A stretch of DNA of 64,000 nt from an uncultured delta proteobacterium (GTDB lineage Bacteria; Desulfobacterota; Binatia; UBA9968). The notes beneath the pieces are model-generated. The model was not told where the DNA came from. It saw only the letters and a program-made list of their open reading frames with translations, and ran no database searches. The translations under genes and the position numbers were made by a program. Below are positions 4,831 through 19,297 of the stretch, piece after piece; positions within the stretch are counted from its first letter, which is position 1, and each line of letters starts with the position of its first letter. The stretch spans positions 128,001-192,000 of the forward strand of contig CAVUZH010000014.1 of NCBI GenBank assembly GCA_963745835.1, written 5' to 3'.

Positions 4831-7485
4831 CGGACTTCTTCCTCTCGTAACAAAAGCGCTACCGGAAAACGCTTTAACAGCTTAGCCACTGGAGCGACGC
4901 CGCCAGCCGACGTTTCGCCGGTGAGGTGATTGCGCCAACGTCCGTTGGGGATTTCGATGACGGTGTCGCCCCACTCTCCGGCGAGCTTCAAAGTCAAACG
5001 CGGCACCACCGTCACTGCGCGCTGGTTGCGCGCAAACGCGATGATATGTTCGCGTTTTCGCTCCGGATGGCGTCAATGCGCGGTAACTGTCCTGCGGCTG
5101 AAATAGTTTCCGCTCGTGCCGCGCTTTGAGAGTTTGCCGGATCAACCACAATTTAGGCAGACCCTCATCTGCCCGGGCCAATATCTGCTCGGGTGACATG
5201 CATTTTATCTCGGCAAGCAACCGGCGCCTCGATTGATAATCCACCGGCCGACGGTTGTCGGGATCGACTAGACTTAGATCCCAGAGTTCACTGCCTTGGT
5301 AAAAATCGGGAATGCCGGGGGCGGTGAGTTTAATCAGTGTCTGCGCCAGCGAATTATCCGGCCTGGCTCAACCAGCGGTCTGACGAAACTTTCCAGACTT
5401 TCCGTGAACTCGCAATTGTTCATGATGTCTTCGACGAAAGCTCGCAAAGCATCGTCGTAGATCGGATTCGGATCGGTCCAGGAGGTATGGGTCTTGGCCT
5501 CACGGGATGCTTTCTCCATGTAGGCAAGAACGCGCTCGATTTCGATCGGCCAGGCGCCGACCATGGTTTGATAAAGCAGGTATTCAGTATTTCGATCGGG
5601 AAAGCCCTCGCGGCGATAGCCGCCGTTGAGCTCGGCCCATCTTGTCACCGTCTCCATCCAACGCTCTGGAATTTCTGAAAGCAAATTGATGCGCGCGCGC
5701 ACATCCTCGCTGCGCTTCGTGTCATGTGTCGAGGAAGCGAGCATGGTGCGCGGCCAGCGTGCCTGGGCCGCGGCGCAGCCTAGGTGGAATTCATCTGGAG
5801 ACAGGCCGAAGCGTCCCGGATCGCCGCCCACTTCGTTCAGCGAAACCAGGCGGTTGAAACAATAAAAAGCGGTGTCTTCGACACCCTTGGCCATCACCGG
5901 CCCGGTCAGTTGCTGCAAACGCATGACCCACTCAGTCTCGAGCTGGCCGCGGTGGCGCAGGAGAAGAATGCCGCGAAAGAAATCGAACAACTCACTATCC
6001 AGGTCCGGCCGCCGCGCCTTGGCATCATCGATGGTGCGGTTGATGATTCGCGCATCCTCATCGCTTATAACTCCAGCTTCAGCGCGCACGTAAGTTCGAT
6101 AAATCGGGAAACACGCGATCAATTCGCGTAGCGCTTCGTGCAGCTCGTGTCGCGTGTAGTCGCGATGCCGGCGGTGGCGCTCGCAAATATCGACCAACAA
6201 AGCGGTCAGACGGTTGAGATCGCTGGCCAGAACCTCGCGCAAGACGAAATGTTTTTTGTCACGCACAACGCGCGGCAAAATCGGTCGGCTCGCCGGTGAA
6301 CTCGCCGTAAAACTCGGTCAGCGCCGCCTCCGCGGCCGGATCGACGAAAAGACTGTTCACGCGATAGATAAAGTCGTAGCCTGTGGTTCCGGCTATCGGC
6401 CATGATTCGGGAAGGCTTTCGCCAGGCTCGAGAATTTTTTCGGCTGTGATCCACGCCCGCGGGCACGCCGTATGCAGGCGATCAAAGTACTGTTCAGGAT
6501 CGCGTAGCCCGTCCGGGTGATCGACGCGGACACCGTCCAGCATCCCGCGATTAAGCCAATCGAGGATGAGCGCATGGGTTTGCGCGAACACCTGCTCGTG
6601 CTCCGACTGCAAACCCGCCAGTGTATTGATGTCGAAGAAACGCCGGTAGCCGAATTCGCGCCCTGCCGTGCGCCAAAACGCCAGGCGATAGTTCTGGCGC
6701 TCTAGTAGTGCATCCAACTGATCGGGATCCGAATTCACCTCAGCGACGATCTGATCGAGAGCCCGGGCGACTTGCGGCTGCTCTTCACAGAGCCGCACCA
6801 ACTGGCCTCGCAGGACCTCTTTGTTGCGGTGCCGCCTCTGCACCGCGGCCCAGTCAGTCGCCGTTGACGGCGGCAGTTGACGCAATGCCTCAGCGATAAA
6901 TGCTAAATCGTCCGAATCGCACCGTCGCGCGGCATTGGCGACTAGCTCATCCAAAGAGCGCGGCGAAACCGGGAACACATGATCATGATAACGGATAATA
7001 AACTGCCCGCCTTCGCGTTGCAGCGCGAGTTCGGCTTTTTCTAGCACTCGTCCGTAATGATCGCCCAGTACCGGCAGAAGAACCGTGTTGCGCAATTTGG
7101 CTTCGGGCGGATCCCAGTCGACATCGAAAAATGCCGCATAGCGGCTCGAAGGTCCGTTCTCGAGAACATCCCACCACCAGGGGTTTTCTCTGCCGCCGAT
7201 GGCCATGTGGTTAGGCACGATATCGAGCACCTGCTTGAGCCCATTTTCTTCGAGCGCGGCGCATAAGCGCGCATGACCCTCGGCTCCGCCGAGTTCCTCG
7301 TTGACCTGCTGCGGGTTCACCACGTCATAGCCATGCGTGCTGCCGGGAGCTGCTTGCAGGTAAGGTGAGCAATAAAGATGGCTGATGCCAAGTTCAGCCA
7401 GGTAATCGGTGATCGCGGCGGCATCGGTGAAGCCGAAGCCCGGATGCAACTGAATGCGGTACGTAGCCCGGAGATCAGGTGACAC
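4827..7485 (-). CDS. treY: Malto-oligosyltrehalose synthase, interrupted by three single-base frameshifts (sequencing error or pseudogene)
   Basis: ATYRIQ, GSTHGYDV, DIVPNHM, YRRFFDIN, RVDHPDGL, EKIL, AKGVEDTAFY, STHDTKRSEDVRAR and PGIPDFYQGSELWDLSLVDPDNRRPVD are spread over four consecutive frame segments. Breaks at ~6270, ~5354 and ~5056. Confidence 0.92.
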
Positions 7486-9581
7486 GCCGCAGCACCTTCA
7501 GCGATCGCGCCTCGACAGCAACTTCCTCGCCCGCCTTGTGCGACTCCTGTTCTTCCTGCGCTCGTGTGGCGGCGGTGTCCAAAACCACCGTCCATTCTTT
7601 GCCCCAGTTTTCTTTCGGGAGAACAAAGCGCAATGGTTCATGGTGAGCATTGAAGAGAACGTAATAGCTGTCATCGACGATCCGCTCGCCGCGCGGGTCC
7701 GGATCACCGATAGCTTCTCCATTGAGAAAAACTCCGACCGCTTTGGCAAATCCCTCGCCCCAGTGTTCCTCGGCCATCTCCACCCCTTCGGGCGTAAACC
7801 AGCCGAGGTCGGTGACCGCCGCGCCGTGAATCGGACGGCCCTGAAACCAGCGACGTCTACGGAAGACCGGATGCTGTTTGCGCAGTTCGATTAATTTAGT
7901 CGTGAATTCAAGCAAATCGTGATCGGCGGACTGCCCAATCAAACCAAGAGATCTCGTTGTCCTGACAGTAGCCGTTGTTGTTGCCCTTTTGGGTGCGGCC
8001 GATCTCGTCGCCGCCGAGCAGCATGGGAATGCCTTGGGATAAAAACAAGGTCGATAGAAAGTTGCGCTTTTGACGGTTGCGCAGCGCGTTGACTGCCGGA
8101 TCGTCGGTGGGTCCCTCCGCGCCGCAGTTCCACGAACGATTGTGACTTTCGCCGTCGCGGTTTTCTTCGCCATTGGCCTCATTATGCTTGTCATTGTAAG
8201 AAACCAAATCGTTGAGCGTGAAGCCGTCATGGGCCGTAATGAAGTTCACGCTTGCATACGGCCGTCGGCCCGTCCCCTCGTAGAGATCGGAGCTGCCGGT
8301 GAAGCGAAAGGCAAACTCACCCAGCGTCTGATCCTGTCCGCGCCAATAATCGCGCACGCAGTCGCGGTACTTGCCGTTCCATTCCAGCCACAACGGCGGA
8401 AAGTTTCCCACCTGGTAACCGCCTTCGCCGACATCCCACGGTTCGGCAATAAGCTTGGTCTGGCTAATGACTGGATCCTGTTGGATGATGTCAAAGAAAG
8501 CCGAAAGCCGGTCGACATCGTGCAGGCCCCGCGCCAAGGTGGACGCCAGATCGAACCGAAACCCGTCAACATGCATTTCGAGCACCCAATAGCGCAGCGA
8601 ATCCATGATCAGCTGCAGCACGTGGGGATGACGCATGTTAAGAGTATTGCCGGTTCCGGTGTAATCCATATAGAAACGGCGATCGTCGTTCATCAGGCGG
8701 TAATAGGCAGCATTGTCGAGTCCTTTAAAGGATAGCGTCGGTCCCAGATGATTGCCCTCGGCGGTATGGTTGTAGACCACATCGAGAATTACCTCGATGC
8801 CGGCTTCATGAAGCGCCTTGACCATCTGTTTGAACTCCTGAACCTGCTGGCCGGTCTGACCGCTCGAGGAGTATTCATTGTGCGGCGCCAAGAAACCGAT
8901 GGAATTGTACCCCCAGTAGTTGCGCAAGCCGCGCTCGAGAAGATGCGAATCGTGAACAAACTGATGGACGGGCATGAGCTCCACTGCGGTAATGCCGAGA
9001 CGCGTTAGATAATCGATCGCTTTGGGGTGACTAAGGGCGGCATAGCTTCCCCGCAATTCTTCCGGAATTTCCTCGAGCTTTTTCGAAAAACCTTTGACGT
9101 GCATTTCGTAAATGATTGTCTCGCTCCACCGGGTACGAGGATGGCGGTCGTTGCCCCAATCAAAAAAAGGATTGATCACCACGGATTTGGGCATGAAGGG
9201 AGCGCTGTCAGCTTCGTTGAGAGGGCCATCGGGATCATCGAAGCGGTACGAGAACACCGCTTCATTCCAATCCACTTGGCCTTCAACTGCCCGCGCATAG
9301 GGATCGAGCAACAGTTTCGCCGGACTACAGCGAATGCCGTCTCCTGGAGCCCAGGGTCCATGAACGCGGAAGCCGTAACGTTGACCAGGAACAATGTTAG
9401 GCAGGTAGCCGTGCCAGCAAAGACTCGTTGTCTCGGGAAGGTCGCAACGTGTCTCATTCCCCTGTTCATCGAACAAACAGAGCTCGACTCGGTCGGCTAC
9501 CTCGGAGAAAACTGAAAAATTAGTACCGGCGCCGTCATACGACGCGCCTAGAGGATAATTATTCCCCGGCCAAACCTTCAT
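7475..9581 (-). CDS. glgX: Glycogen debranching enzyme GlgX/TreX, one frameshift near 7935
   Basis: [60 protein letters not shown]; the C-terminus ([10 protein letters not shown]) continues in the frame of ORF 7475..8230. Confidence 0.93.
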
Positions 9582-9703
9582 CTAAACTACTCCCAGCGTG
9601 CTTCGAATGATCAGCCGGAAAGGATGGAGCGCGTCTCGATGTGATTCAATCGGCGATATTTCGATTGTCTGTTGGATTCTATGCTGGTTGAACATCTTGG
9701 TTC

Positions 9704-9719
9704 AGCAAAACGAATGCCA
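9704..9719 (-). promoter_or_regulatory. Putative sigma54 (-24/-12) promoter for glgX-treY-treZ-malQ
   Basis: Minus strand TGGCATTCGTTTTGCT = GG-N10-GC, close to the TGGCACG-N4-TTGCW consensus, ~120 nt upstream of glgX. Confidence 0.6.
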
Positions 9720-10111
9720 CCAGCGTGGGGTTCCCACGCTGCATCGCAGTTGAGCAACTGAGATCACGTCGATTGCGCTAGAAACTGCGCGCGAATGTCT
9801 TTGTCATTCGCGACCTCCAGTCGACCGATGGACTGCTAGTGCCTTGCACGACATTCGGACGCGTTTATATTTTTCATCTAGGCTCAACCGATTAATGTGC
9901 GAATCTGAAACATCCCTTATTGATACCCTATCCCACGAACGCTACACGGTCGCATTTCAGAAGGAAGCACGCGTGATCCGAGGCAGCAGCCACTTGAGAG
10001 ACGCCTCTGCCGAAGCCAGCTGCGGGTTCGTGCCTGAAGTTGGTTTCGTAAGACATAAGAAAGTTCAAGCAAGCGGATCGAAAGCAACTCTCAGACTTCA
10101 TGAAAGACATT

Positions 10112-10127
10112 GGGCGTGATTCTTGCA
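10112..10127 (+). promoter_or_regulatory. Putative sigma54 (-24/-12) promoter facing the diiron-enzyme cluster
   Basis: GGGCGTGATTCTTGCA = GG-N10-GC with TTGCA. Confidence 0.45.
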
Positions 10128-10485
10128 CAATGTACTGGTTTGCGGCTCGTATGGCTTTAACAAACCTATCTGAGTTCTTTGTCGGACTACGCGCTAAATA
10201 AAGTGACCACGCTGCAGAATCTTTTGCTGGTCAGGCTGATATCTCTGAGGGCAGGAATCATTGGGGAGCATCGCCGGCCCTCAACCTATGATCCTATACC
10301 TTCGTAAGACGCGTTTGCGATCATAAGATCTTCCTTCTGCTCTGGCGCTTCCATGGAGCGAACAAACCGGGAAGATAATGCTTCCACCTCGAAACAGCGG
10401 ATTCAGCATTTCATCCTGGGGAAGTTATCGAAAACGCGTCGCCCTTGCAAGAACAAACTTGTCGAGCAGCAAACGGAGGCGATGA

Positions 10486-11652
10486 ATGCAAAGTGAGCAA
10501 GCCGAACACATTAACCGCGCGCACTCGAAGTATGCCGCAATGGAGGAGCCAATATTGCCAGCAGAGTACGGAGAAGCGGAAGAGAGCTTTGCCGAGCTCA
10601 TAAAATCGAAGTGCCTGGACCACTACGTCACAGACCGCCCTGCGCCTGTTCGGCGATTCGAAGCCGCAGTTGAGAAAGCACTAAGCTATATCTATCCGGC
10701 AGGTCATAAAGGTATTAAGCCTCATTCAGGCCAAGCTGACGACTGCGCCCGGCTGTTCTTGCAGCGAGTGCTTTATCGAATCAATCGTCTCAAACTTTTC
10801 TGGTATGACAACCTCCAGAACTACGATAATGAACGTTCCGCCTATCTGCATCGGCTGCGAGATAGGATCGAGCAGGCCTGGCAAGCATGGGAACTGTCGT
10901 TCTTGGATGTTGCCGCGCTCGGCGGTGAGAACGTAGGTGAGGCGCTGCTGCGCCGCGCGGCATACGATGTCTCACCCCCGCCGTCCACGACCGGCCTCTA
11001 TTTTCGAGATCACGTGGGCCGGGTCGGTTATCGGCGCCTCCTGGCCATCGCATCTCTGGATGGCTTGGTCGAAGCGAGCCAGCTGTCGCGCACCCTTGGC
11101 GGAGTTTCAAACGACATACACTCAATGCTGACGCGCGTCCTGGTCGAGGAGTACGGCGGCGGGAAGCTCAATCGTAAGCATTCCACTTTTTTTTCTGCGA
11201 TGCTAAGCGAGCTCGAGATGCGCACAGAACCGGAAGCCTATTTCGACCTGGTTCCGTGGGAGGTGCTCGCGGCCATCAACCACAGCTTCTTACTCTCAGA
11301 ACGCAAACGGTTTTACTTACGCTACGTGGGCGGGTTGCTCTACACCGAAATCTCCGTGCCTGCTGCGTTCGATAATTATCGCGCGGCGGCCGAGCGGCTC
11401 GTTTTGCCAAAGGCCGCTCGCGGCTACTGGGAACTGCATATCAGAGAAGATAAGCGGCACGGACAGTGGATGCTTTACGACATAGCGTTGCCGCTGGCGG
11501 CGAGATATCCGGCGGAAGCCTGGGAGATCACGCTCGGTTATGATCAACAGAAGTTGATCAGCGAGCGTTCCGGCGCAAGCGTCGCTCGATCCGTGCGGGA
11601 CGCGGAGGTCGAAGCGGCGCATCAACAAACTGTTCGCCAGAGTGCAGCATGA
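10486..11652 (+). CDS. Heme-oxygenase-like diiron oxidase (iron-containing redox enzyme family)
   Basis: EEYGGG...KH, YTE, and WELHIREDKRH provide the E/H/E/H/D/H ligand pattern of HDOs; GGAGG RBS upstream. Confidence 0.85.
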   Translation: MQSEQAEHINRAHSKYAAMEEPILPAEYGEAEESFAELIKSKCLDHYVTDRPAPVRRFEAAVEKALSYIYPAGHKGIKPHSGQADDCARLFLQRVLYRINRLKLFWYDNLQNYDNERSAYLHRLRDRIEQAWQAWELSFLDVAALGGENVGEALLRRAAYDVSPPPSTTGLYFRDHVGRVGYRRLLAIASLDGLVEASQLSRTLGGVSNDIHSMLTRVLVEEYGGGKLNRKHSTFFSAMLSELEMRTEPEAYFDLVPWEVLAAINHSFLLSERKRFYLRYVGGLLYTEISVPAAFDNYRAAAERLVLPKAARGYWELHIREDKRHGQWMLYDIALPLAARYPAEAWEITLGYDQQKLISERSGASVARSVRDAEVEAAHQQTVRQSAA

Positions 11653-12713
11653 GCCACGCTGGATCCGCCCCCTTTCGTTGCACGTACATCTTGCCGATCC
11701 GGCGTGTGCGCGCGCGTTCCCAGGAAGCTCATGAGTTGGCGGGATACTTCCGCGAACTTGCGCGTGAAGGTTGCGAAGTCCTGGTTGTGGACGGCTCCTC
11801 TCCTGAGATCTTCGCACAGCACGACCACGCCTGGCGTAAGCTGTGCCGCCACGTTCCAGTCGATCGAAGGTACACTTATCTCAATGGGAAAGTGAATGGG
11901 GTCCACACCGGCGTTGATCTTGCGAGCTGCAAAAGCATTATTCTCGCCGATGACGACATCCGTTATTCGTCCGAAGATATCCGGCGCGCGTGTAAGCTGC
12001 TTAAGCGGCACGATATGGTACGGCCGCAGAATTATCTCGCGCCGCTACCATGGTGGGCGCGAACGGAGGCGGCGCGGATGCTGATCAATCGAGGCGTTCT
12101 ACGATCCGGAGATTACCCCGGCACTTGCGCGTTTCGCCGCTCCGTGTGTCTGCGCTTCGGCCATTACGACGGGGACGTCTTGTTCGACAATGAAGAAATC
12201 GTGCGCCACTTCATCTTAAATGGAGGCGATGTCTGCTACGCACCCGATTTTTTTATTCTGAAGCGACCTCCAACATTGCGCAAATGGGTCGAGCAACGTC
12301 CGCGTCAAGCCTACGAAGACTTCGATATGCGCACGAAAACGATCCTGTTCATGTCTCTGCTACCCTCGGCAATCGCACTAGCATTGTTGAGTGGCGCCCG
12401 TGCTGCGCTGGTGTTTCTCCTCGTCGTATCAATCTGCGCGGCGGTCGTTGCCGGCCGTGGCCTGTTGCGGGATCAAGCGTATCATTTTTTTCCTGCTCAT
12501 TTGATCCTCTATGCGCCGCTGTGGATACTCGAGCGTGGTCTGAGCGTTTATTGGGCGCTGTACTGGCGCCTCGCTCACGGCGGTTATCCGTTCGGGGAAC
12601 ATTTGCTGTCCAAGGGAACTGGGCGAGCATGGAGCGCGGCTCGCGCGTGTATGCGAAAGTCGCACGCTTTGACGGGTCCATCGCGCCAGGGCCTAACCCG
12701 GTCGAGTGATTAA
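11649..12713 (+). CDS. GT-A fold glycosyltransferase (GT2/GT21-like) with C-terminal TM helices
   Basis: VVDGS, NGKVNG, ADDD (DxD), QRPRQ (QxxRW-like), hydrophobic C-terminus; ATGA overlap with the upstream gene. Confidence 0.8.
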   Translation: MSHAGSAPFRCTYILPIRRVRARSQEAHELAGYFRELAREGCEVLVVDGSSPEIFAQHDHAWRKLCRHVPVDRRYTYLNGKVNGVHTGVDLASCKSIILADDDIRYSSEDIRRACKLLKRHDMVRPQNYLAPLPWWARTEAARMLINRGVLRSGDYPGTCAFRRSVCLRFGHYDGDVLFDNEEIVRHFILNGGDVCYAPDFFILKRPPTLRKWVEQRPRQAYEDFDMRTKTILFMSLLPSAIALALLSGARAALVFLLVVSICAAVVAGRGLLRDQAYHFFPAHLILYAPLWILERGLSVYWALYWRLAHGGYPFGEHLLSKGTGRAWSAARACMRKSHALTGPSRQGLTRSSD

Positions 12714-12730
12714 GATTAACGGAGAAAAGG

Positions 12731-14221
12731 ATGCTCGACAGCAAAGACGTGCACCGCTGGCCCGAACTCGGAGACATGCCGGCAGAGGAGTTCCGCGAAG
12801 CTCTGCATCGGGTTGCCGATTGGGTGGCAGACTATCGTGAGAGCATCGAAGAGCTGAGAATTTCGCCAGACATTGCGCCTGGCGAGATCAGCGCCCGGCT
12901 GCCGCAAGTTCCGCCCGAGGCTCCCGGACGGTTCAATGATATTTTTCGCGACTTTCAAAAATCGATAATCCCCGGCGTCGTGCACTGGGGACATCCTGCG
13001 TTCTTCGGCTATTTCGGCTCGACGACAACCGCTGCGGGAATTCTGGGCGAAATGCTGATGGGAGCACTCAATGTTAGTGCGATGACTTGGCGCACCTCGC
13101 CTTCCGCAACCGAACTTGAAACCTTGGTCCTCGACTGGCTGCGCCAGATGCTTGGGCTTCCCGTGGACTATACAGGTGTCGTTTACGACACCGCTTCAGT
13201 AGCTGTAATGCATGCCCTGGCGGCGGCGCGTGAGAATCTCGGTGTCAATGCCCGCGCGCACGGTTTATGCGGGCGGCCCGAAGTTCCTGGCTTGCGGATT
13301 TATGCCTCAGATCAGGCGCACAGCTCAGTTGAGAAAGCGGCTATCACCCTTGGCATCGGCGAACAAAATGTGCGCCGAGTGCCATGCGAGACGACCTATC
13401 GCATGGAAGTATCTGCGCTCCGCAGCGCCATCGACACGGACTTGCGCGGCGGCCTGCTGCCGATGGCAGTCATTGCCACCGTCGGCACAACTTCGACAAC
13501 CAGCGTCGATCCGGTGGATGAAATTGCCGCGCTATGTGACGAGCACCGGTTATGGCTGCATGTTGACGCGGCGTATGGTGGAGCGATGGCTCTCTTGCCG
13601 GAAGGTCGTTCCGTGATGAAGGGAGTCGAGGCGGCTGACTCCATTGTAGTCAATCCGCATAAATGGTTATTCGTCCCGCTCGACTTCAGCGCGCTCTACC
13701 TCAGAAGGCCGGAGCTCCTGCGCGCAACCTTCTCGCTCGTCCCCGAGTACCTGCGCGGCGATGCCGAACAGGCCGAACGCAACTATATGGACTACGGCAT
13801 ACAACTTGGTCGCCGCTTTCGCGCTCTCAAGGCCTGGATGGTTATCCGCAGCTTCGGCACCGAAGGGCTTGCCGCCCGGATTCGGGAGCACATTCGCCTG
13901 GCGCGCTTGTTTGCATCCTGGCTCGATGCCGATCCGGAGTTCGAGCTGCTGGCGCCGGTGACAATGGCTGTGGTCTGCTTCCGCATAGCGCCCCATGGGC
14001 TTGGAACTAGACAGGCGGTGGACCAAGAGCTTAACGCTTTTAATCGACGGCTCGTCGAAGCAGTCAATCGCACCGGCGAAGCCTATCTAACCTACACCAC
14101 ATTAAATGGCCATACTGCAATGCGGCTAGCGGTCGGCAACATCTTAACCACTGAGCGTCATCTCACGAAGGCTTTTGATCTGATCAGGCGTGAGGCCGCT
14201 CGGCTTTGCCCAGCTCGTTAA
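12731..14221 (+). CDS. Group II PLP-dependent (aromatic L-amino acid type) decarboxylase
   Basis: HWGHP.FFGYF, SPSATELE, SDQAHSSVEKA, WLHVDAAYGG, NPHKW (PLP lysine), GRRFRALK. Confidence 0.92.
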   Translation: MLDSKDVHRWPELGDMPAEEFREALHRVADWVADYRESIEELRISPDIAPGEISARLPQVPPEAPGRFNDIFRDFQKSIIPGVVHWGHPAFFGYFGSTTTAAGILGEMLMGALNVSAMTWRTSPSATELETLVLDWLRQMLGLPVDYTGVVYDTASVAVMHALAAARENLGVNARAHGLCGRPEVPGLRIYASDQAHSSVEKAAITLGIGEQNVRRVPCETTYRMEVSALRSAIDTDLRGGLLPMAVIATVGTTSTTSVDPVDEIAALCDEHRLWLHVDAAYGGAMALLPEGRSVMKGVEAADSIVVNPHKWLFVPLDFSALYLRRPELLRATFSLVPEYLRGDAEQAERNYMDYGIQLGRRFRALKAWMVIRSFGTEGLAARIREHIRLARLFASWLDADPEFELLAPVTMAVVCFRIAPHGLGTRQAVDQELNAFNRRLVEAVNRTGEAYLTYTTLNGHTAMRLAVGNILTTERHLTKAFDLIRREAARLCPAR

Positions 14222-14288
14222 CGCCGTTGCCGCTTCATAGAAGAGCATTACTAGCAGTCGGCAATGCCGCCGAAATCATTGAAGACCG

Positions 14289-15563
14289 ATGTATTCACAA
14301 GTAACAGTCAAAATTGAAAGCCGCGTCCATCTTCTGAGCACTCTCGCTGAAGCAGCCGAGCTAGAGCACGACCTGATGTGCATGTATCTCTATGCTGCTT
14401 TCAGTTTCAAGCGAACGACCGCTGAAGGTCTTACAGTCGAGGAGATGGACGCAGTCAATGGTTGGCGCAAGACGCTTCTCAATATCTGTGTTGAAGAGAT
14501 GACCCATCTGGCGCTGGTTGCCAATCTCACCACCGCAGTCGGCGGCGGCGCGCATTTTTTTCGTCCCGAGTTTCCCGTGCGACCCGGGTATTTCCCTTCC
14601 GAGTTTGTTCTGGGGCTCGCGCCATTTAACCAGGAGACGCTTCAGCACTTTATATTCCTTGAGCGCCCTGAGGACGAACCTATAGAAGATGCCGACGAGT
14701 TTATTCCGGAGAAAGAATACACCCGCAGCAGCGCGAGGGGCCGGCTTATGGATCATACGGGTGACTACTCGACAGTCGGACAGCTCTATGAAGCTATCGA
14801 GTACGGAGTTGTGTCTCTGAGCTCCGCTTTAGGTGAAAGCAATCTTTTCTGCGGCTCCCCTTCTGTGCAGATCTCTCCCGACGACGTAGAATTGAAAGGG
14901 CTGGCAGTCGTAACCGACAAAGCTTCGGCTATGGAGGTGCTTCGGCTGATCGTTGAGCAAGGCGAAGGGGCGCGCACAACGAAAGGGTCGCACTATGATA
15001 AATTCAGCCGGATAGCCGAAGAGTATGACTGGCTCCTAAGGAAAAACCCAACTTTTGAACCAAGCAGGCCCGCGGCCAGAAATCCTGTGATGCGAAAGCC
15101 GACGACCTCGGAGCGGCGAGTTTGGGTTAATCAGACGCCCGCGTCTGATTATCTGGATCTGGCCAACGCACTATATGGCCTGATGCTGCGATTCTTAGTT
15201 CAGGTGTATTCAATGGAGAACCGCAGTCAGTCGGTTAAAAACACTCTTCTCAAAGCCGCGTTTTCCTTGATGCATGCAGTGGCCGCCGTCGCCACGCTGC
15301 TGACTAAGTTTCCTGCTAGTCGCGATTGCCCCGGAACGACGGCGGGAATAAACTTTGCCCTCAATAGGTATTTCACACCCTCCGAACTGACCAGTGAGAA
15401 GCTTCTTCTTATCGAGCGGCTTGACGAGATTCTGGATGGTCTGCGACCGCTTCGCGATGACGCGGAAGATCAGAGGGCGGGCGAGAGAAAGGAGCTCGCA
15501 GCTAGTCTCGATTCAGTAAAGAACACGCTCGGAAAAGTTCGAGAGTCCTTGGAGATCATCTAA
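14289..15563 (+). CDS. Ferritin-like domain protein (PF12902-type, as in VioB/RebD/StaD)
   Basis: AAELEH..MCMYLYAAFS, EEMTHL...NL..AVGG, YSTVGQLY, IVEQGEG, SHY.KF. Confidence 0.8.
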   Translation: MYSQVTVKIESRVHLLSTLAEAAELEHDLMCMYLYAAFSFKRTTAEGLTVEEMDAVNGWRKTLLNICVEEMTHLALVANLTTAVGGGAHFFRPEFPVRPGYFPSEFVLGLAPFNQETLQHFIFLERPEDEPIEDADEFIPEKEYTRSSARGRLMDHTGDYSTVGQLYEAIEYGVVSLSSALGESNLFCGSPSVQISPDDVELKGLAVVTDKASAMEVLRLIVEQGEGARTTKGSHYDKFSRIAEEYDWLLRKNPTFEPSRPAARNPVMRKPTTSERRVWVNQTPASDYLDLANALYGLMLRFLVQVYSMENRSQSVKNTLLKAAFSLMHAVAAVATLLTKFPASRDCPGTTAGINFALNRYFTPSELTSEKLLLIERLDEILDGLRPLRDDAEDQRAGERKELAASLDSVKNTLGKVRESLEII

Positions 15564-15786
15564 TCGAGCAAACGGGCGGCGACCTACAGGCGCTGCAAGC
15601 TCGCGTTGCGCGAGGGGCCGACCTCGTCAGAGTCAAAGTAGCGAGGAGGATTGCTGGGACGAGGCCAAGAACTCTCACACATTTTGCGGACCAGGCACGG
15701 CTGCGTAGAGTCCTCTGGGTCGATGGTGCTCGCGAGCCGAACACAGCATAGGACTACTTTCAAGAACCTCTGAGAAGGATCACTGA

Positions 15787-17649
15787 TTGAGCACTATCAA
15801 CAAAACGTCCGGAGCAAGACGTCCGAAGCCGCGAGGAAGTCTTGCGCGGGCTCGTGCCGTCCGCGGCGACAAATTGCCGTCGGTACTAATTCTTCCAACC
15901 CTAATTTTAATCATTGCTACTCTCTATTTGGGGCAAGCGTTTCTAATCCCGGTTGCGCTGTCAATCTTGCTGACGTTTCTCCTAACCCCAGTTGCCGATG
16001 CTTTAGAGCGGCTCGGCTTAGGGCGACTGGCTTCGGTGATGATTATCGTCGTTCTGGCCTTTTCGCTGCTCGCCGCAATCGGTTGGCTGGTAACGGTCCA
16101 GCTGACCACCGTCGCCAACGAGTTGCCGACCTATAGAAGCAACATCCGAGAAAAGATTAGCGATATACGCGGCGCCGGTAAGGGAGGGGCTCTCGAGAAG
16201 ATTCGCGAGACTGCCGAAGAGGTGAAAGAGGAATTTAGCAAAGACGAGCCCGCAGCGGCCGCATCAAAGCCGCGCGAAGTTGTCGTTCAATCTGAGGAAT
16301 CGTCGACGTTCTGGCCCATGCCTCTGGCCACCGCGCCGATGTTGGAACGGATGGCTTCAGCCGGCCTGGTGATCGTGCTGGTGATTTTTATGCTCATCCA
16401 GCGCGAAAACCTGCGCAATCGTCTGATCCGTCTGATCGGTTATAGTCGAGTGACGATAACCACCAAGGCTCTCGAAGAAGCGACGCAGCGAATCAGCCGC
16501 TATCTGCTCATGCAATCAATTATCAACGCGTCATTTGGAATCGCAGTCTGCATCGCGCTTTACTTGTTCGGCCTGCCTTACGCGTTCCTGTGGGGATTCT
16601 TGGCTGCGGTACTGCGGTTTATTCCCTATGTCGGACCCGTTGCCGCGGCACTCCTGCCGAGCGTCCTTAGCATGGCGGTTTTTCCAGGGTGGACTTGGCC
16701 ACTCCTGGTGATTGCGACGATCATTGTCTTAGAACTCATCAACAATATGATTCTAGAGCCTCTCCTCTACGGTGAAAGCGCCGGCGTATCTGAAGTCGGT
16801 CTTCTCATAGCGGTCGCGTTCTGGACTTGGCTTTGGGGACCCATCGGTCTTGTTCTCTCGACGCCGCTGACAGTCTGCGTTGTCGTGATCAGCAAATATA
16901 TGCCTCAATTGGATTTCATTGGAGTTCTGATGAGCGACGAGCCGGTGATCGAGCCAAGCATCAGCTATTATCAGAGACTGCTGGCCATGGATCAGGACGA
17001 AGCGGCGGAAATAGTCGAAGAGCATCTAAAGTCACATCCTAAAGAGGAGATCTTTGACGATCTCCTGGTGCCGGCGTTAAATTATCTCAAGAGAGATTTC
17101 GCTTTCGGTAAGATGGCGGACAACGAGCAACAATTTGTCCTGCAAGCGACCCGCCAGATAATCGAGGAACTTGACGTCTTCAAAACGGAAAACGGGTCGT
17201 TGCCGGCACCGGCCGCGGAAATCGCAACGGCAGCTGCAACGCAAACTCCAGAGGGCACGCCCAAGGTCCAAATCATGGGCTGTCCGGTTCGCGATGAAGC
17301 CGACGAGCTGTCTTTGCTGATGCTTCGACAGTTACTCGATCCTCTCCGTTATGAACTTGAGGTTATTGCCGATGAGCTGCTGGCGGCCGAGATTATCGAC
17401 CAGATCGCCGACAAAAAGCCTGCTTTAATTTGTCTTGCTTCGCTGCCGCCTGGCGGCTTAGCTCAGACGCGATACCTGTGCAAACGATTACGCGCGCGAT
17501 TTCCCGACAGCAAGCTTATCGTCGGTCGATGGGGTGGCCGAACCGACAATAGCAACGCGCTGACCGATGCCGGCGCCGATAGGATCGGGAATAAAATTAT
17601 CGAAACCCGCGATCAGATCGTCCAGTTAAGCCAAATTCTTCCTCACTGA
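15787..17649 (+). CDS. AI-2E family transporter with C-terminal soluble (B12-binding-like) domain
   Basis: LIPVALSILLTFLL.P, LRFIPYVGP, EP.LYG...GVS, FWTWLWGPIGL.LSTPLTVC; start codon uncertain. Confidence 0.88.
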   Translation: MSTINKTSGARRPKPRGSLARARAVRGDKLPSVLILPTLILIIATLYLGQAFLIPVALSILLTFLLTPVADALERLGLGRLASVMIIVVLAFSLLAAIGWLVTVQLTTVANELPTYRSNIREKISDIRGAGKGGALEKIRETAEEVKEEFSKDEPAAAASKPREVVVQSEESSTFWPMPLATAPMLERMASAGLVIVLVIFMLIQRENLRNRLIRLIGYSRVTITTKALEEATQRISRYLLMQSIINASFGIAVCIALYLFGLPYAFLWGFLAAVLRFIPYVGPVAAALLPSVLSMAVFPGWTWPLLVIATIIVLELINNMILEPLLYGESAGVSEVGLLIAVAFWTWLWGPIGLVLSTPLTVCVVVISKYMPQLDFIGVLMSDEPVIEPSISYYQRLLAMDQDEAAEIVEEHLKSHPKEEIFDDLLVPALNYLKRDFAFGKMADNEQQFVLQATRQIIEELDVFKTENGSLPAPAAEIATAAATQTPEGTPKVQIMGCPVRDEADELSLLMLRQLLDPLRYELEVIADELLAAEIIDQIADKKPALICLASLPPGGLAQTRYLCKRLRARFPDSKLIVGRWGGRTDNSNALTDAGADRIGNKIIETRDQIVQLSQILPH

Positions 17650-17752
17650 TTGACGCGCAGAAATTCTCATCAGCAGCCGCGCTGCTTCGTTTAGAGCTTC
17701 CTTCGAATTCAATCTATTCCGATTAATTGCAACGATGCGCTGTACCACTCAC

Positions 17753-17788
17753 TTGGAATTAGCGCCTTGGTCAGTATAATTGTGTTGT
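17753..17788 (+). promoter_or_regulatory. Putative sigma70 promoter, (near-)leaderless
   Basis: TTGGAA-N16-TATAAT-N8-ATG(17789), no SD. Confidence 0.45.
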
Positions 17789-19297
17789 ATGCAATCGGTT
17801 TATGTCGCCGGAATCGGTATGACGAAGTTCGGTAAGGATCCGAGGTCCTTGGCCGAGATTTGCCATGACGCGGCTCAAACGGCGCTAACCTCTTCCGAAA
17901 TACAGGAAGTGGACGCAATTTATATCGGCGCCATGAATCCGGAGGAATTTACCGGTGACAGCAATATTGCTTCGCACATTGCCGACGCCCTGGGGCTAAC
18001 TGGGATCCCGGCGGTGCGTATCGAAACTGCGTCTTCCGCCGGAGCGGCGGCGATTCAGGCCGGTTTCCAAGCCGTAGCATCAGGTTATTACCGCCGCGTT
18101 CTGATTCTCGGCGGTGAGAAGATGACCCACCTCAGCACCAGCGCGACCACAAGAGTTTTGGCCGGCGTCATCGACAAAGAGGAACGCCAGTGCGGCGCCA
18201 CCATGCCGGCGTTGGCGGCGATGATCACTGAAAAATATCGCGAGAAATTCAATCTGTCACAGTCCCGGTTGGAGACGATGTTGTGCGCCGTCGCGGTAAA
18301 GAATCACGGCAATGGCGCGCATAACCCGATGGCGCAATTTCAGAAGCCGATCAGCCGCGAGACCTATCTGGCGAGCAAATACGTCGCCACCCCGCTGCGT
18401 CTTTATGACTGTTCGCCGATTACCGACGGCGCCGCGGCAGTCGTGCTTACCGGCGAAAAAACAGACGTGCGGTTGGCGGGCGTCGGTCAGGGAACCGGCC
18501 CGCTCAGCCTGCGAGGACGAGAGATTTTTACCTCATTTCCAGCCACCCGGATGGCGGCAGCGCGCGCCTATCAGATGGCTGAGACTTCGCCGCAGGGAAT
18601 CGAGTTTGCCGAGGTGCACGATGCGTTCACCCCCTTCGAAATTATCACCACCGAGGATTTAGGTTTTTTTGCCCCAGGCAAAGGCGGCGATGCGGTCCTG
18701 GAAGGCGTCACCGCAATCGACGGACGGTTGCCGGTAAACCCGTCAGGCGGTTTGAAAGCGCGCGGACATCCCGTCGGGGCGAGCGGACTGGCGCAGATCG
18801 TCGAAGCGGTGAAAAGGCTGCGCGGCGAAAGCGGTTCAAAACATCAATTTAACCGAGGCCTGACACAGAGCACCGGCGGGCTTGCCAGCAATAACTTCGT
18901 CACCATTCTCGAGCGCACTGACGCATCGTTGCCGCGCACTTCTGGATTTCCGCAGCCCGCTCGGCAAGTCGCGAAGAGCCGCCCGGCGAAGATGCCACTG
19001 AGCAACGAGGGCGTGATCGAAACCTTCACGATCCTCTATGTCACCCCGGACGGATTTTTGCCGCCGCTGGCGCTCGCGTTGGTCCGGGAACAGAATGGTC
19101 GCCTGATCGTGGCGCAGGGAGAAGAAAGCAAACACCTGAAGATCGGCCGTGAAGTTTACCTGAAGCGAATTGAGGACTACTATCTCTTTACCCTCAAGGG
19201 ACGTTTCAAGATGGTCCAGGACTCTCTGAAAAGAAGTCTTTGGCAACGCGCCAGAGCTCTCGTAAGAAAGCCGATCCCTGCAGACGGTAAATTATAA
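17789..19297 (+). CDS. SCP2/archaeal-type thiolase-fold protein fused to a C-terminal DUF35-like OB domain
   Basis: GIGMTKFG, CSPITDGAAA, EVHDAF, VNPSGGLKARGHPVGASG; C-terminal G.IETFTI...P.GF.PP..LALV resembles the DUF35 OB fold. Confidence 0.85.
   Translation: MQSVYVAGIGMTKFGKDPRSLAEICHDAAQTALTSSEIQEVDAIYIGAMNPEEFTGDSNIASHIADALGLTGIPAVRIETASSAGAAAIQAGFQAVASGYYRRVLILGGEKMTHLSTSATTRVLAGVIDKEERQCGATMPALAAMITEKYREKFNLSQSRLETMLCAVAVKNHGNGAHNPMAQFQKPISRETYLASKYVATPLRLYDCSPITDGAAAVVLTGEKTDVRLAGVGQGTGPLSLRGREIFTSFPATRMAAARAYQMAETSPQGIEFAEVHDAFTPFEIITTEDLGFFAPGKGGDAVLEGVTAIDGRLPVNPSGGLKARGHPVGASGLAQIVEAVKRLRGESGSKHQFNRGLTQSTGGLASNNFVTILERTDASLPRTSGFPQPARQVAKSRPAKMPLSNEGVIETFTILYVTPDGFLPPLALALVREQNGRLIVAQGEESKHLKIGREVYLKRIEDYYLFTLKGRFKMVQDSLKRSLWQRARALVRKPIPADGKL

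Follow-up and report, generated by a model that had tools for sequence, protein, structure and literature searches.

Which of several neighbouring genes act together, and on what, is the question raised by a run of co-directional genes in the genome of an uncultured delta proteobacterium of the Binatia (GTDB lineage UBA9968). The genes lie in a 64,000-nucleotide stretch of contig CAVUZH010000014.1 (assembly GCA_963745835.1, positions 128,001 to 192,000; hereafter the window). A first-pass annotation made from the letters alone had described them as an undescribed four-gene biosynthetic cluster, composed of a haem-oxygenase-like diiron oxidase (HDO), a glycosyltransferase (GT), a pyridoxal phosphate (PLP)-dependent aromatic amino acid decarboxylase and a VioB-type ferritin-like enzyme, and followed by an AI-2E transporter. 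The layout given there is confirmed by the list of open reading frames (ORFs) and by Pfam, including the domain calls: four ORFs on the + strand encode proteins of 388, 354, 496 and 424 aa, the HDO stop codon and the GT start codon share a 4-nt ATGA overlap (gcagcATGAgcc), and the spacings after the GT, the decarboxylase and the ferritin-like gene are 17, 67 and 223 nt, the last reaching to the transporter. The 12 ORFs scanned at 5.3-21.5 kb include no nonribosomal peptide synthetase, polyketide synthase or terpene gene, again as annotated. The membership of the cluster is what changes. We argue here that the HDO, GT and decarboxylase genes (the trio) form a three-gene accessory cassette, and we give a probability of roughly one half to the proposal that this cassette, with its SznF/RohS-type HDO, membrane GT-A enzyme and aromatic-type decarboxylase, makes an N-oxygenated glycoconjugate derived from an aromatic amino acid.

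The strongest evidence for the trio is its conservation. A profile built from 20 HDO homologues retrieved 497 relatives from a species-representative genome collection, and the best 80 of these 497 loci, to which all counts out of 80 refer, were fetched and classified by tblastn with the window proteins. The HDO, GT and decarboxylase genes occur in the same order and on the same strand in 37 of the 80 loci, and the HDO and GT without the decarboxylase in 2; in 1 further locus the contig ends at the GT, 4 offer too little sequence for a call, and in 36 the HDO is found alone, at 53-62% identity. For these three genes, an order and strand shared by 37/80 loci is far beyond chance. The ferritin-like gene accompanies none of the 80, including the trio carriers of the same genus. 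The four-gene cluster of the first-pass annotation thereby shrinks to three genes, since orthologues of the trio do co-occur elsewhere (37/80 loci and 5/41 relatives) and all four together do not (0/80). The trio loci belong to 26 Pyrinomonadaceae, 3 Blastocatellia, 2 other Acidobacteriota, 4 Binatia/'delta' genomes, 1 member of the Rokubacteria and 1 of the Thermodesulfobacteriota, and the proteins are 56-94% identical across the soil lineages (Pyrinomonadaceae, Binatia, Rokubacteria). The 36 loci with the HDO alone are of a different make-up (22 cyanobacteria, 1 Sericytochromatia, 7 Nitrospirota, 5 Nitrospinota, 1 Burkholderiales). As a whole, the HDO family extends in the 497 genome records over Acidobacteriota, Binatia, Rokubacteria, Nitrospirota, Nitrospinota, cyanobacteria and others.

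Closer to the window, HDO and GT matches coincide in five of 41 relatives (G000, G001, G004, G005, G006) and are found in none of the other 36. Decarboxylase orthologues, at 83-100% identity, are confined to those same five genomes, and eight further genomes among the 41 hold only paralogues at 31-34% identity. Given that three genomes of the same genus, at 95-96% completeness, show no match to any trio gene, the trio is best described as an accessory cassette that is patchy within the genus. On a quick maximum-likelihood tree of the HDO (SH-aLRT support only, drawn midpoint-rooted), the trio label requires 4 changes, against a mean of 25 after shuffling, and the window HDO falls in a starred clade of 15 rows, every one of them trio-linked. 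In the tree so drawn it is nested in an otherwise acidobacterial clade, a placement that would fit a transfer between phyla, transfer and direction alike being read from a midpoint-drawn tree. The trio is also present in soil RNA libraries: contigs from three metatranscriptome libraries of three studies are 90-99% alike over the three genes, and some span the HDO/GT junction (X19 record 20) or the GT/decarboxylase junction (X15 record 5, X16 record 14). Stretches of the window that no RNA contig covers are given no weight.

Two loci may be mentioned separately. At L009 (genome G006, 10164-12559) the GT is broken into two pieces and contains one TAA, and similarity to the decarboxylase ends at residue 437; this is either a decaying cassette or the result of errors in a long-read assembly. 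At L061 (11275-14295, Betaproteobacteria) the HDO and GT are followed, in the place of the decarboxylase, by a 1006-aa protein without a Pfam match.

The HDO carries the central chemistry of our proposal. It matches PF14518 (Haem_oxygenas_2) over residues 186-350 with 93.2 bits against a cut-off of 28.9, and a search of the PDB with its 20-homologue profile returns RohS (9pfx, 1.9e-14), SznF (4e-12) and HrmI (0.01), all of them N-oxygenases. CADD, UndA, BesC and AetD are absent from this search at E<=1, so that functions of their type are disfavoured, and a C-C cleaving or nitrile-forming role appears less likely from the sequence. Eight residues (D192, E196, E222, H232, E288, H318, D322 and H325) are invariant in the 20 sequences. 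The six core ligands are all present, with E222/H232, E288 and H318/D322/H325 aligning with the DEYG/KHS, TE and HxxxDxxH motifs of SznF; we take the aligned positions in DEYG, KHS and TE to be SznF ligands. A seventh ligand is present as well, E196 aligning with SznF E189, and D192 aligns with SznF D185. In the SznF study, Glu189 is presented as an extra ligand that marks N-oxygenating HDOs, a residue of auxiliary helix 2 that CADD and UndA lack, and Asp185 as the sole charged residue in the pocket; His311, Asp315 and His318 are named as ligands (10.1101/2020.07.29.227702). By its SznF-like signature of three histidines and four carboxylates, the window HDO belongs with the N-oxygenases, and N-oxygenation is its predicted activity; among the options that the first-pass annotation had listed for this enzyme, it is the one favoured by the seven SznF-type ligands and by RohS and SznF as nearest solved relatives.

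The known members of the group share some features with the window HDO and differ in others. SznF, which works with SznE in streptozotocin biosynthesis in Streptomyces achromogenes, shares with it the 3-His/4-carboxylate set, the glutamate of auxiliary helix 2 and the neighbouring aspartate, and the pairing of SznF with the methyltransferase SznE is echoed in other phyla, where relatives of the window HDO likewise pair with methyltransferases. However, the window HDO lacks the C-terminal cupin (388 aa versus 471-491 aa in SznF chains), its similarity to SznF is just at profile level (E ~4e-12), and its partners are a GT2 enzyme and an aromatic-type decarboxylase rather than a methyltransferase. 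RohS, the best solved relative (aligned over residues 142-358), is a single-domain HDO N-oxygenase of ~306 aa and lacks the conserved 140-residue N-terminal part of the window HDO family. In the azomycin pathway RohP, RohQ and RohR act on arginine, and the context at the window locus differs in that no RohP, RohQ or RohR genes are seen there. RohS itself is described as the N-oxygenase converting 2-aminoimidazole to 2-nitroimidazole in azomycin biosynthesis (PMC13133933). The lysine N6-oxygenases HrmI and BelK, which give 6-nitronorleucine, are described as HDOs that take a primary alkylamine via the hydroxylamine up to the nitro level; we propose this type of reaction for an arylethylamine. 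The match of HrmI to the window HDO is weak (E 0.01), though, its substrate is an amino acid side chain, and its ligand set is given as 3H/3C in a review (PMC13108848). DtpC, a desiccation-tolerance HDO of Acinetobacter (PMC13232832), was also weighed, since many of the hosts are soil-crust organisms, and was not relied on.

The decarboxylase assignment made in the first pass is supported. The protein matches PF00282 (Pyridoxal_deC) with 337.8 bits over model positions 1-374 of 375, and its best PDB matches (6eew, 7xin and 6eei, E ~1e-110) are plant and bacterial aromatic L-amino acid decarboxylases (AADCs), including dopa, tyrosine and tryptophan decarboxylases (DDC, TyDC, TDC). With the plant and bacterial AADC structures taken together (6eew, 7xin, 6eei, 1js3), the similarity runs over the full length at E 1e-101 to 1e-110 and includes the NPHKW motif and the loop tyrosine. 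The PLP lysine is kept, NPHK311W aligning with the SPHKW/NAHKW of 6eew, 7xin and 6eei, as is Y340 in PEYL, which aligns with the tyrosine of NPEYL in 6eew; this catalytic-loop position is Tyr in decarboxylases and Phe in aldehyde synthases. The enzyme is therefore of the aromatic-amino-acid type by sequence, with decarboxylation as its predicted activity, although it differs from the known AADCs in its operon with an HDO and a membrane GT and in scoring below the equivalog cut-offs considered below.

For the GT, a search of the PDB by sequence gave nothing significant, and the assignment comes from structure prediction. The AlphaFold2 (AF2) model (pLDDT 83, pTM 0.81) combines a Rossmann-like alpha/beta domain with three long helices C-terminal to it (228-248, 250-279 and 283-310), which overlap a hydrophobic stretch at 229-275 with mean hydropathy >1.6 in windows starting at 229-256. 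The best Foldseek matches, at E 1e-10 to 1e-7 and with moderate TM-scores of 0.35-0.63, are the polyprenyl-phosphate GTs PcManGT, ArnC, DPMS and GtrB and the membrane synthases hyaluronan synthase and BcsA. D48-G-S and the DxD motif D101-D102-D103 are invariant in 31 sequences. According to the model, then, the GT is a membrane-embedded GT-A enzyme, in keeping with the first-pass annotation, which had a membrane-associated glycoside as product.

The evidence so far establishes the protein families with their metal and PLP residues, a GT fold with membrane helices, the shared gene order, the joint occurrence of the trio and its presence in soil RNA libraries; from this we infer a substrate, a product and a set of steps. 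The decarboxylase would turn an aromatic amino acid, namely Tyr, Trp, Phe or DOPA, into an arylethylamine. The diiron HDO would oxidise a nitrogen, in either the amino acid or the amine, to the hydroxylamine, nitroso or nitro level, so that either decarboxylation or N-oxidation may come first. The membrane GT would then add a sugar on the inner side of the membrane, giving a glycoside or a lipid-linked or envelope-bound glycoconjugate.

Several observations weigh against this reading. The HDO stands alone in nearly as many of the best 80 loci as carry the trio, and in the five HDO-alone genomes that were searched (5/5), neither a GT homologue nor a close decarboxylase was found anywhere; because the HDO occurs without the GT and the decarboxylase, its substrate need not be the decarboxylase product. 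For the same reason the order 'amine first, then N-oxidation', which the first-pass annotation had put forward, is not established. The RNA-library contigs are no proof of a single transcript, and a library may include DNA. The decarboxylase falls below the cut-off of every NCBIfam equivalog and so receives no named substrate class: the best score is that for DABA (diaminobutyrate) decarboxylase, at 198 versus 900, and the tyrosine decarboxylase models reach 78 versus 299 and 53 versus 905. All Pfam scores of the GT are likewise below cut-off (PF00535, 23.1 versus 23.3; PF13506, 19.5 versus 21.7; PF13641, 18.8 versus 27), and its acceptor could be a polyprenyl phosphate unconnected with the HDO and the decarboxylase. 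Finally, the genes that accompany the HDO in other lineages do not decide between an aromatic amine and a guanidino compound as substrate, as set out below.

A GT of this kind raises the alternative that the trio modifies the cell envelope, the GT making a polyprenyl-phosphate sugar or glycolipid and the decarboxylase and HDO supplying or tailoring an amine substituent, with no diffusible metabolite produced. The polyprenyl-phosphate GTs and membrane synthases among the structural matches speak for it, as do a UDP-galactopyranose mutase (cluster 13, 5 loci) and a GT1-family enzyme (cluster 14, 4 loci) in the fetched flanks, which stand directly 5' in L011 and L034. On the other hand, the TM-scores of those structural matches are moderate, and the conserved core has no flippase, polymerase or acyltransferase. 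In addition, a glycosidase similar to glycoside hydrolase family 1 (GH1-like, clan GH-A) is found in 11 Acidobacteriota-type loci, mostly directly 3' of the decarboxylase (L011 and L023 differ), and such a partner better fits a small glycoside. We therefore consider envelope modification unlikely. The same glycosidase fits the glycoside logic suggested in the first pass.

The partner genes of other lineages bear on the substrate. In Pyrinomonadaceae-type loci, a hydrolase resembling dimethylarginine dimethylaminohydrolase (DDAH) lies directly 5' of the HDO in 23 loci; it scores 173 and 149 bits with the NCBIfam DDAH models, below their cut-offs, and conserves a C-terminal GSLSC motif. Crp-type and response-regulator genes are often found 3' in loci of this type. 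The window's genome holds no homologue of the DDAH-like gene and none of the GH1-like gene. Where the trio is absent, the neighbours of the HDO include a HemK-like methyltransferase (in 12 loci, all but one cyanobacterial), MOSC genes (8 cyanobacterial loci), NifU-like genes, a class I methyltransferase in Nitrospirota and an EgtD-like PF10017 methyltransferase in two Nitrospina loci (L076 and L066). One metagenomic protein of 681 aa (P0245) fuses an HDO 55% identical to that of the window to a HemK-like methyltransferase domain at residues 419-533; it is the only fused HDO in a search for longer proteins, and since it comes from a single contig of 2779 bases it is perhaps a gene-calling artefact. 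In Nitrospinales, a 709-aa protein directly 5' of the HDO (L036, 6664-8793) has a C-terminal nitroreductase domain, and a 545-aa protein in the same position (L068, 7164-8801) belongs to the same cluster (78), its nitroreductase assignment resting on that clustering only. These partners belong to enzyme types whose substrates are amino acids or N-oxidised nitrogen, and are consistent with a small molecule that is derived from an amino acid, N-oxidised and sometimes glycosylated.

They would equally fit a guanidino substrate. In that case, the HDO would oxidise arginine, methylarginine or a related amine to N-hydroxyguanidines or nitric oxide-type products, and the decarboxylase would act on the same amino acid or be only loosely coupled. 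SznF and RohS, the closest relatives with a known reaction, are described as oxidising nitrogens of guanidine type, and the DDAH-like hydrolase with its GSLSC motif in 23 loci points the same way. So do the MOSC genes beside the HDO, MOSC enzymes being reductants of N-hydroxylated compounds, and the methyltransferase partners, which are reminiscent of SznE/SznF. Although the DDAH-like, MOSC and SznF/RohS links would fit either substrate, the decarboxylase is close to aromatic decarboxylases (~1e-110) and matches no arginine or ornithine decarboxylase model, the EgtD-like partners belong to a family annotated as histidine-specific, and the window's genome lacks the DDAH-like homologue. A guanidino substrate is thus, in our judgement, unlikely for the window's cassette, and an aromatic amino acid is the substrate that we prefer.

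The four-gene pathway built on the first annotation, in which a VioB-like ferritin protein would couple or oxidise a Trp- or Tyr-derived intermediate together with the trio and the AI-2E transporter would export the product, has some basis in the window itself. The ferritin-like gene is on the same strand as the decarboxylase, 67 nt away, with no terminator-like site on the + strand between them, and the PF12902 domain that it shares with the VioB, StaD and RebD synthases lies in a region that the VioB model also covers. However, VioB-type proteins have ~1000 aa rather than 424, and against the VioB model TIGR04492 the window protein scores 70.7 bits where 1250 are required, with its best stretch at model positions 598-736 of 1003. 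A search of the PDB with its sequence gave nothing significant; the only clear Foldseek match of its AF2 model (pLDDT 87) is 3hl1, a ferritin-like protein whose function is unknown (E 7e-6). No Trp oxidase of the VioA/RebO/StaO type was found among the 12 ORFs at 5.3-21.5 kb, the rest of the genome lying outside this search. All 30 sequences compared keep two ExxH motifs, at positions 24 and 70. The homologues belong to unrelated taxa: those of Oligoflexus and Nitrospirales are standalone proteins, and those of Bdellovibrio, Leptospira and Steroidobacter are fusions with Fer4_19 and CDGSH iron-sulfur domains. The fusions suggest that the ferritin-like protein may be a self-contained redox protein.

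The distribution of the gene is the more telling point. Besides its absence from the 80 trio and HDO loci, it is absent from all 40 relatives (4 of them trio carriers), the window's genome being the only one of that set to hold it, and of 400 other genomes of the phylum a single one has a match, 43% identical. When the window is compared by blastn with the same-genus loci L007 and L009, similarity ends at 14226/14246 and restarts at 15758/15763, so that a 1.5-kb piece of the window stands against an unrelated spacer of ~270-300 bp. Contigs from soil DNA and RNA show loose ends at the same places (14228/14246 and 15758), with letters that match the short form, and a DNA run contains an identical 14306-15718 piece, the long form; both forms therefore circulate. 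A metagenome scan with the ferritin-like protein found a single short locus, L088, a more divergent contig in which the junction of the ferritin-like gene with the transporter recurs at 84% nucleotide identity. One RNA-library contig continues for ~70 nt 5' of the ferritin-like gene, in letters that by reading resemble the decarboxylase-ferritin spacer of the window. On these two observations, which count in favour of the four-gene pathway, a strain-specific functional link of the ferritin-like gene to the trio may exist. By comparison of the sequences, nevertheless, the ferritin-like gene is the cargo of a variable cassette of 1.5 kb that lies between the decarboxylase and transporter genes, and not a conserved partner of the trio; no observation supports a coupling role of the VioB kind. 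We separately note that the longest contig is given as 5641 both for P0032, a fragment of an HDO, and for P0128, a ferritin-like protein, a hint of one more contig with both genes but no proof.

The transporter fares little better as a member of the cluster. It does follow, as had been annotated, but it adjoins the trio only within the genus, in L007 and L009, and is absent from the other 78 loci. The fusion of an AI-2E domain to B12-binding domains is unusual and suggests cobalamin- or light-linked control of the transporter. Altogether, we regard the four-gene pathway as very unlikely. That the three conserved genes are functionally unrelated, which could be argued from their being linked by genomic data alone and from the HDO occurring by itself, is scarcely credible given their shared order and strand in 37 loci of several phyla, the confinement of HDO and GT matches and of close decarboxylase orthologues to the same five of 41 relatives and the 4-nt overlap of HDO and GT.

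Features of the locus in window coordinates, with the evidence or remark for each
Feature	Position	Strand	Evidence or remark
Non-coding stretch separating the HDO gene from divergent glgX	9582..10485		904 bp; presumed promoter/regulatory region of the cassette
HDO, predicted N-oxygenase of SznF/RohS type	10486..11652	+	PF14518 and ligand residues
Membrane-anchored GT-A (GT2-like) glycosyltransferase, predicted	11649..12713	+	AF2 model, Foldseek, DxD
Group II PLP decarboxylase, aromatic L-amino acid decarboxylase type (predicted)	12731..14221	+	PF00282, PDB matches
Variable cassette; ~270-300 bp unrelated spacer instead in closest relatives	14247..15757		blastn against L007 and L009
Ferritin-like protein (PF12902), strain-variable	14289..15563	+	PF12902 at 153 bits
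AI-2E transporter fused to B12-binding domains	15787..17649	+	PF01594 at 154.9 bits, PF02607 and PF02310

The region upstream of the HDO gene offers few landmarks. Its only ORF of at least 80 aa is one of 91 aa starting with TTG, and the region lies within a single blastn alignment to the same-genus loci (89-95% identity for the whole piece, from window position 9000 to 14226/14246). Rfam gave no match at E<=0.1 in 9000-18000, which includes this region, and a promoter scan found no sigma-70-like site on its + strand; the counts of the promoter and terminator scan were not above those of shuffles, and nothing useful was found 5' of the HDO. Beyond it, on the - strand (region 5334-9581), glgX is split into overlapping ORFs at 7908-9581 and 7475-8230 and treY into ORFs at 6259-7485 and 5334-6278. 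The equivalents in L009 are single ORFs of 701 aa and 884 aa, and the splits in the window are frameshifts, that is, either pseudogenes or assembly indels. On the other side of the transporter, a thiolase-domain protein (17780-19297, + strand) has a C-terminal stretch weakly resembling the ChsH2 OB fold (PF01796, E 0.0016); 3' of it lie a GntR/FCD regulator and then an anaerobic sulfatase maturase that bears a SEC-C motif.

As to novelty, about a dozen HDOs have a known reaction, none of them in such a context, according to the available part of a review of March 2026 (PMC13108848). In the literature covered by a full-text search, no HDO is described that is paired with both an aromatic decarboxylase and a membrane GT; the first-pass annotation had likewise called the combination undescribed. 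The trio is an orphan cassette centred on an N-oxygenase and does not constitute a new category. A more far-reaching idea, which we hold to be quite improbable, is that the HDO family is a conserved module for the N-oxygenation of aromatic amino acids that has been turned, in soil Acidobacteriota and Binatia, into a two-component chemical defence, in which a reactive N-hydroxy or nitro arylethylamine, formed by the decarboxylase and the HDO, would be stored by the membrane GT as a harmless glycoside and set free when needed by the GH1-like glycosidase of the 11 loci. If true, this would be a bacterial counterpart of the nitro- and cyanogenic glycosides of plants.

In practical terms, recognising the ferritin-like gene as a variable add-on saves effort in the design of expression experiments. 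Because the same HDO has different partners across phyla, the trio also provides a clean comparative set for deorphanising this HDO clade. The hosts are uncultured but abundant soil lineages (Pyrinomonadaceae, Binatia, Rokubacteria) whose chemistry is almost unexplored, and the conservation of the trio across them, together with its occurrence in soil RNA libraries, points to a metabolite yet to be described that is probably N-oxidised and glycosylated.

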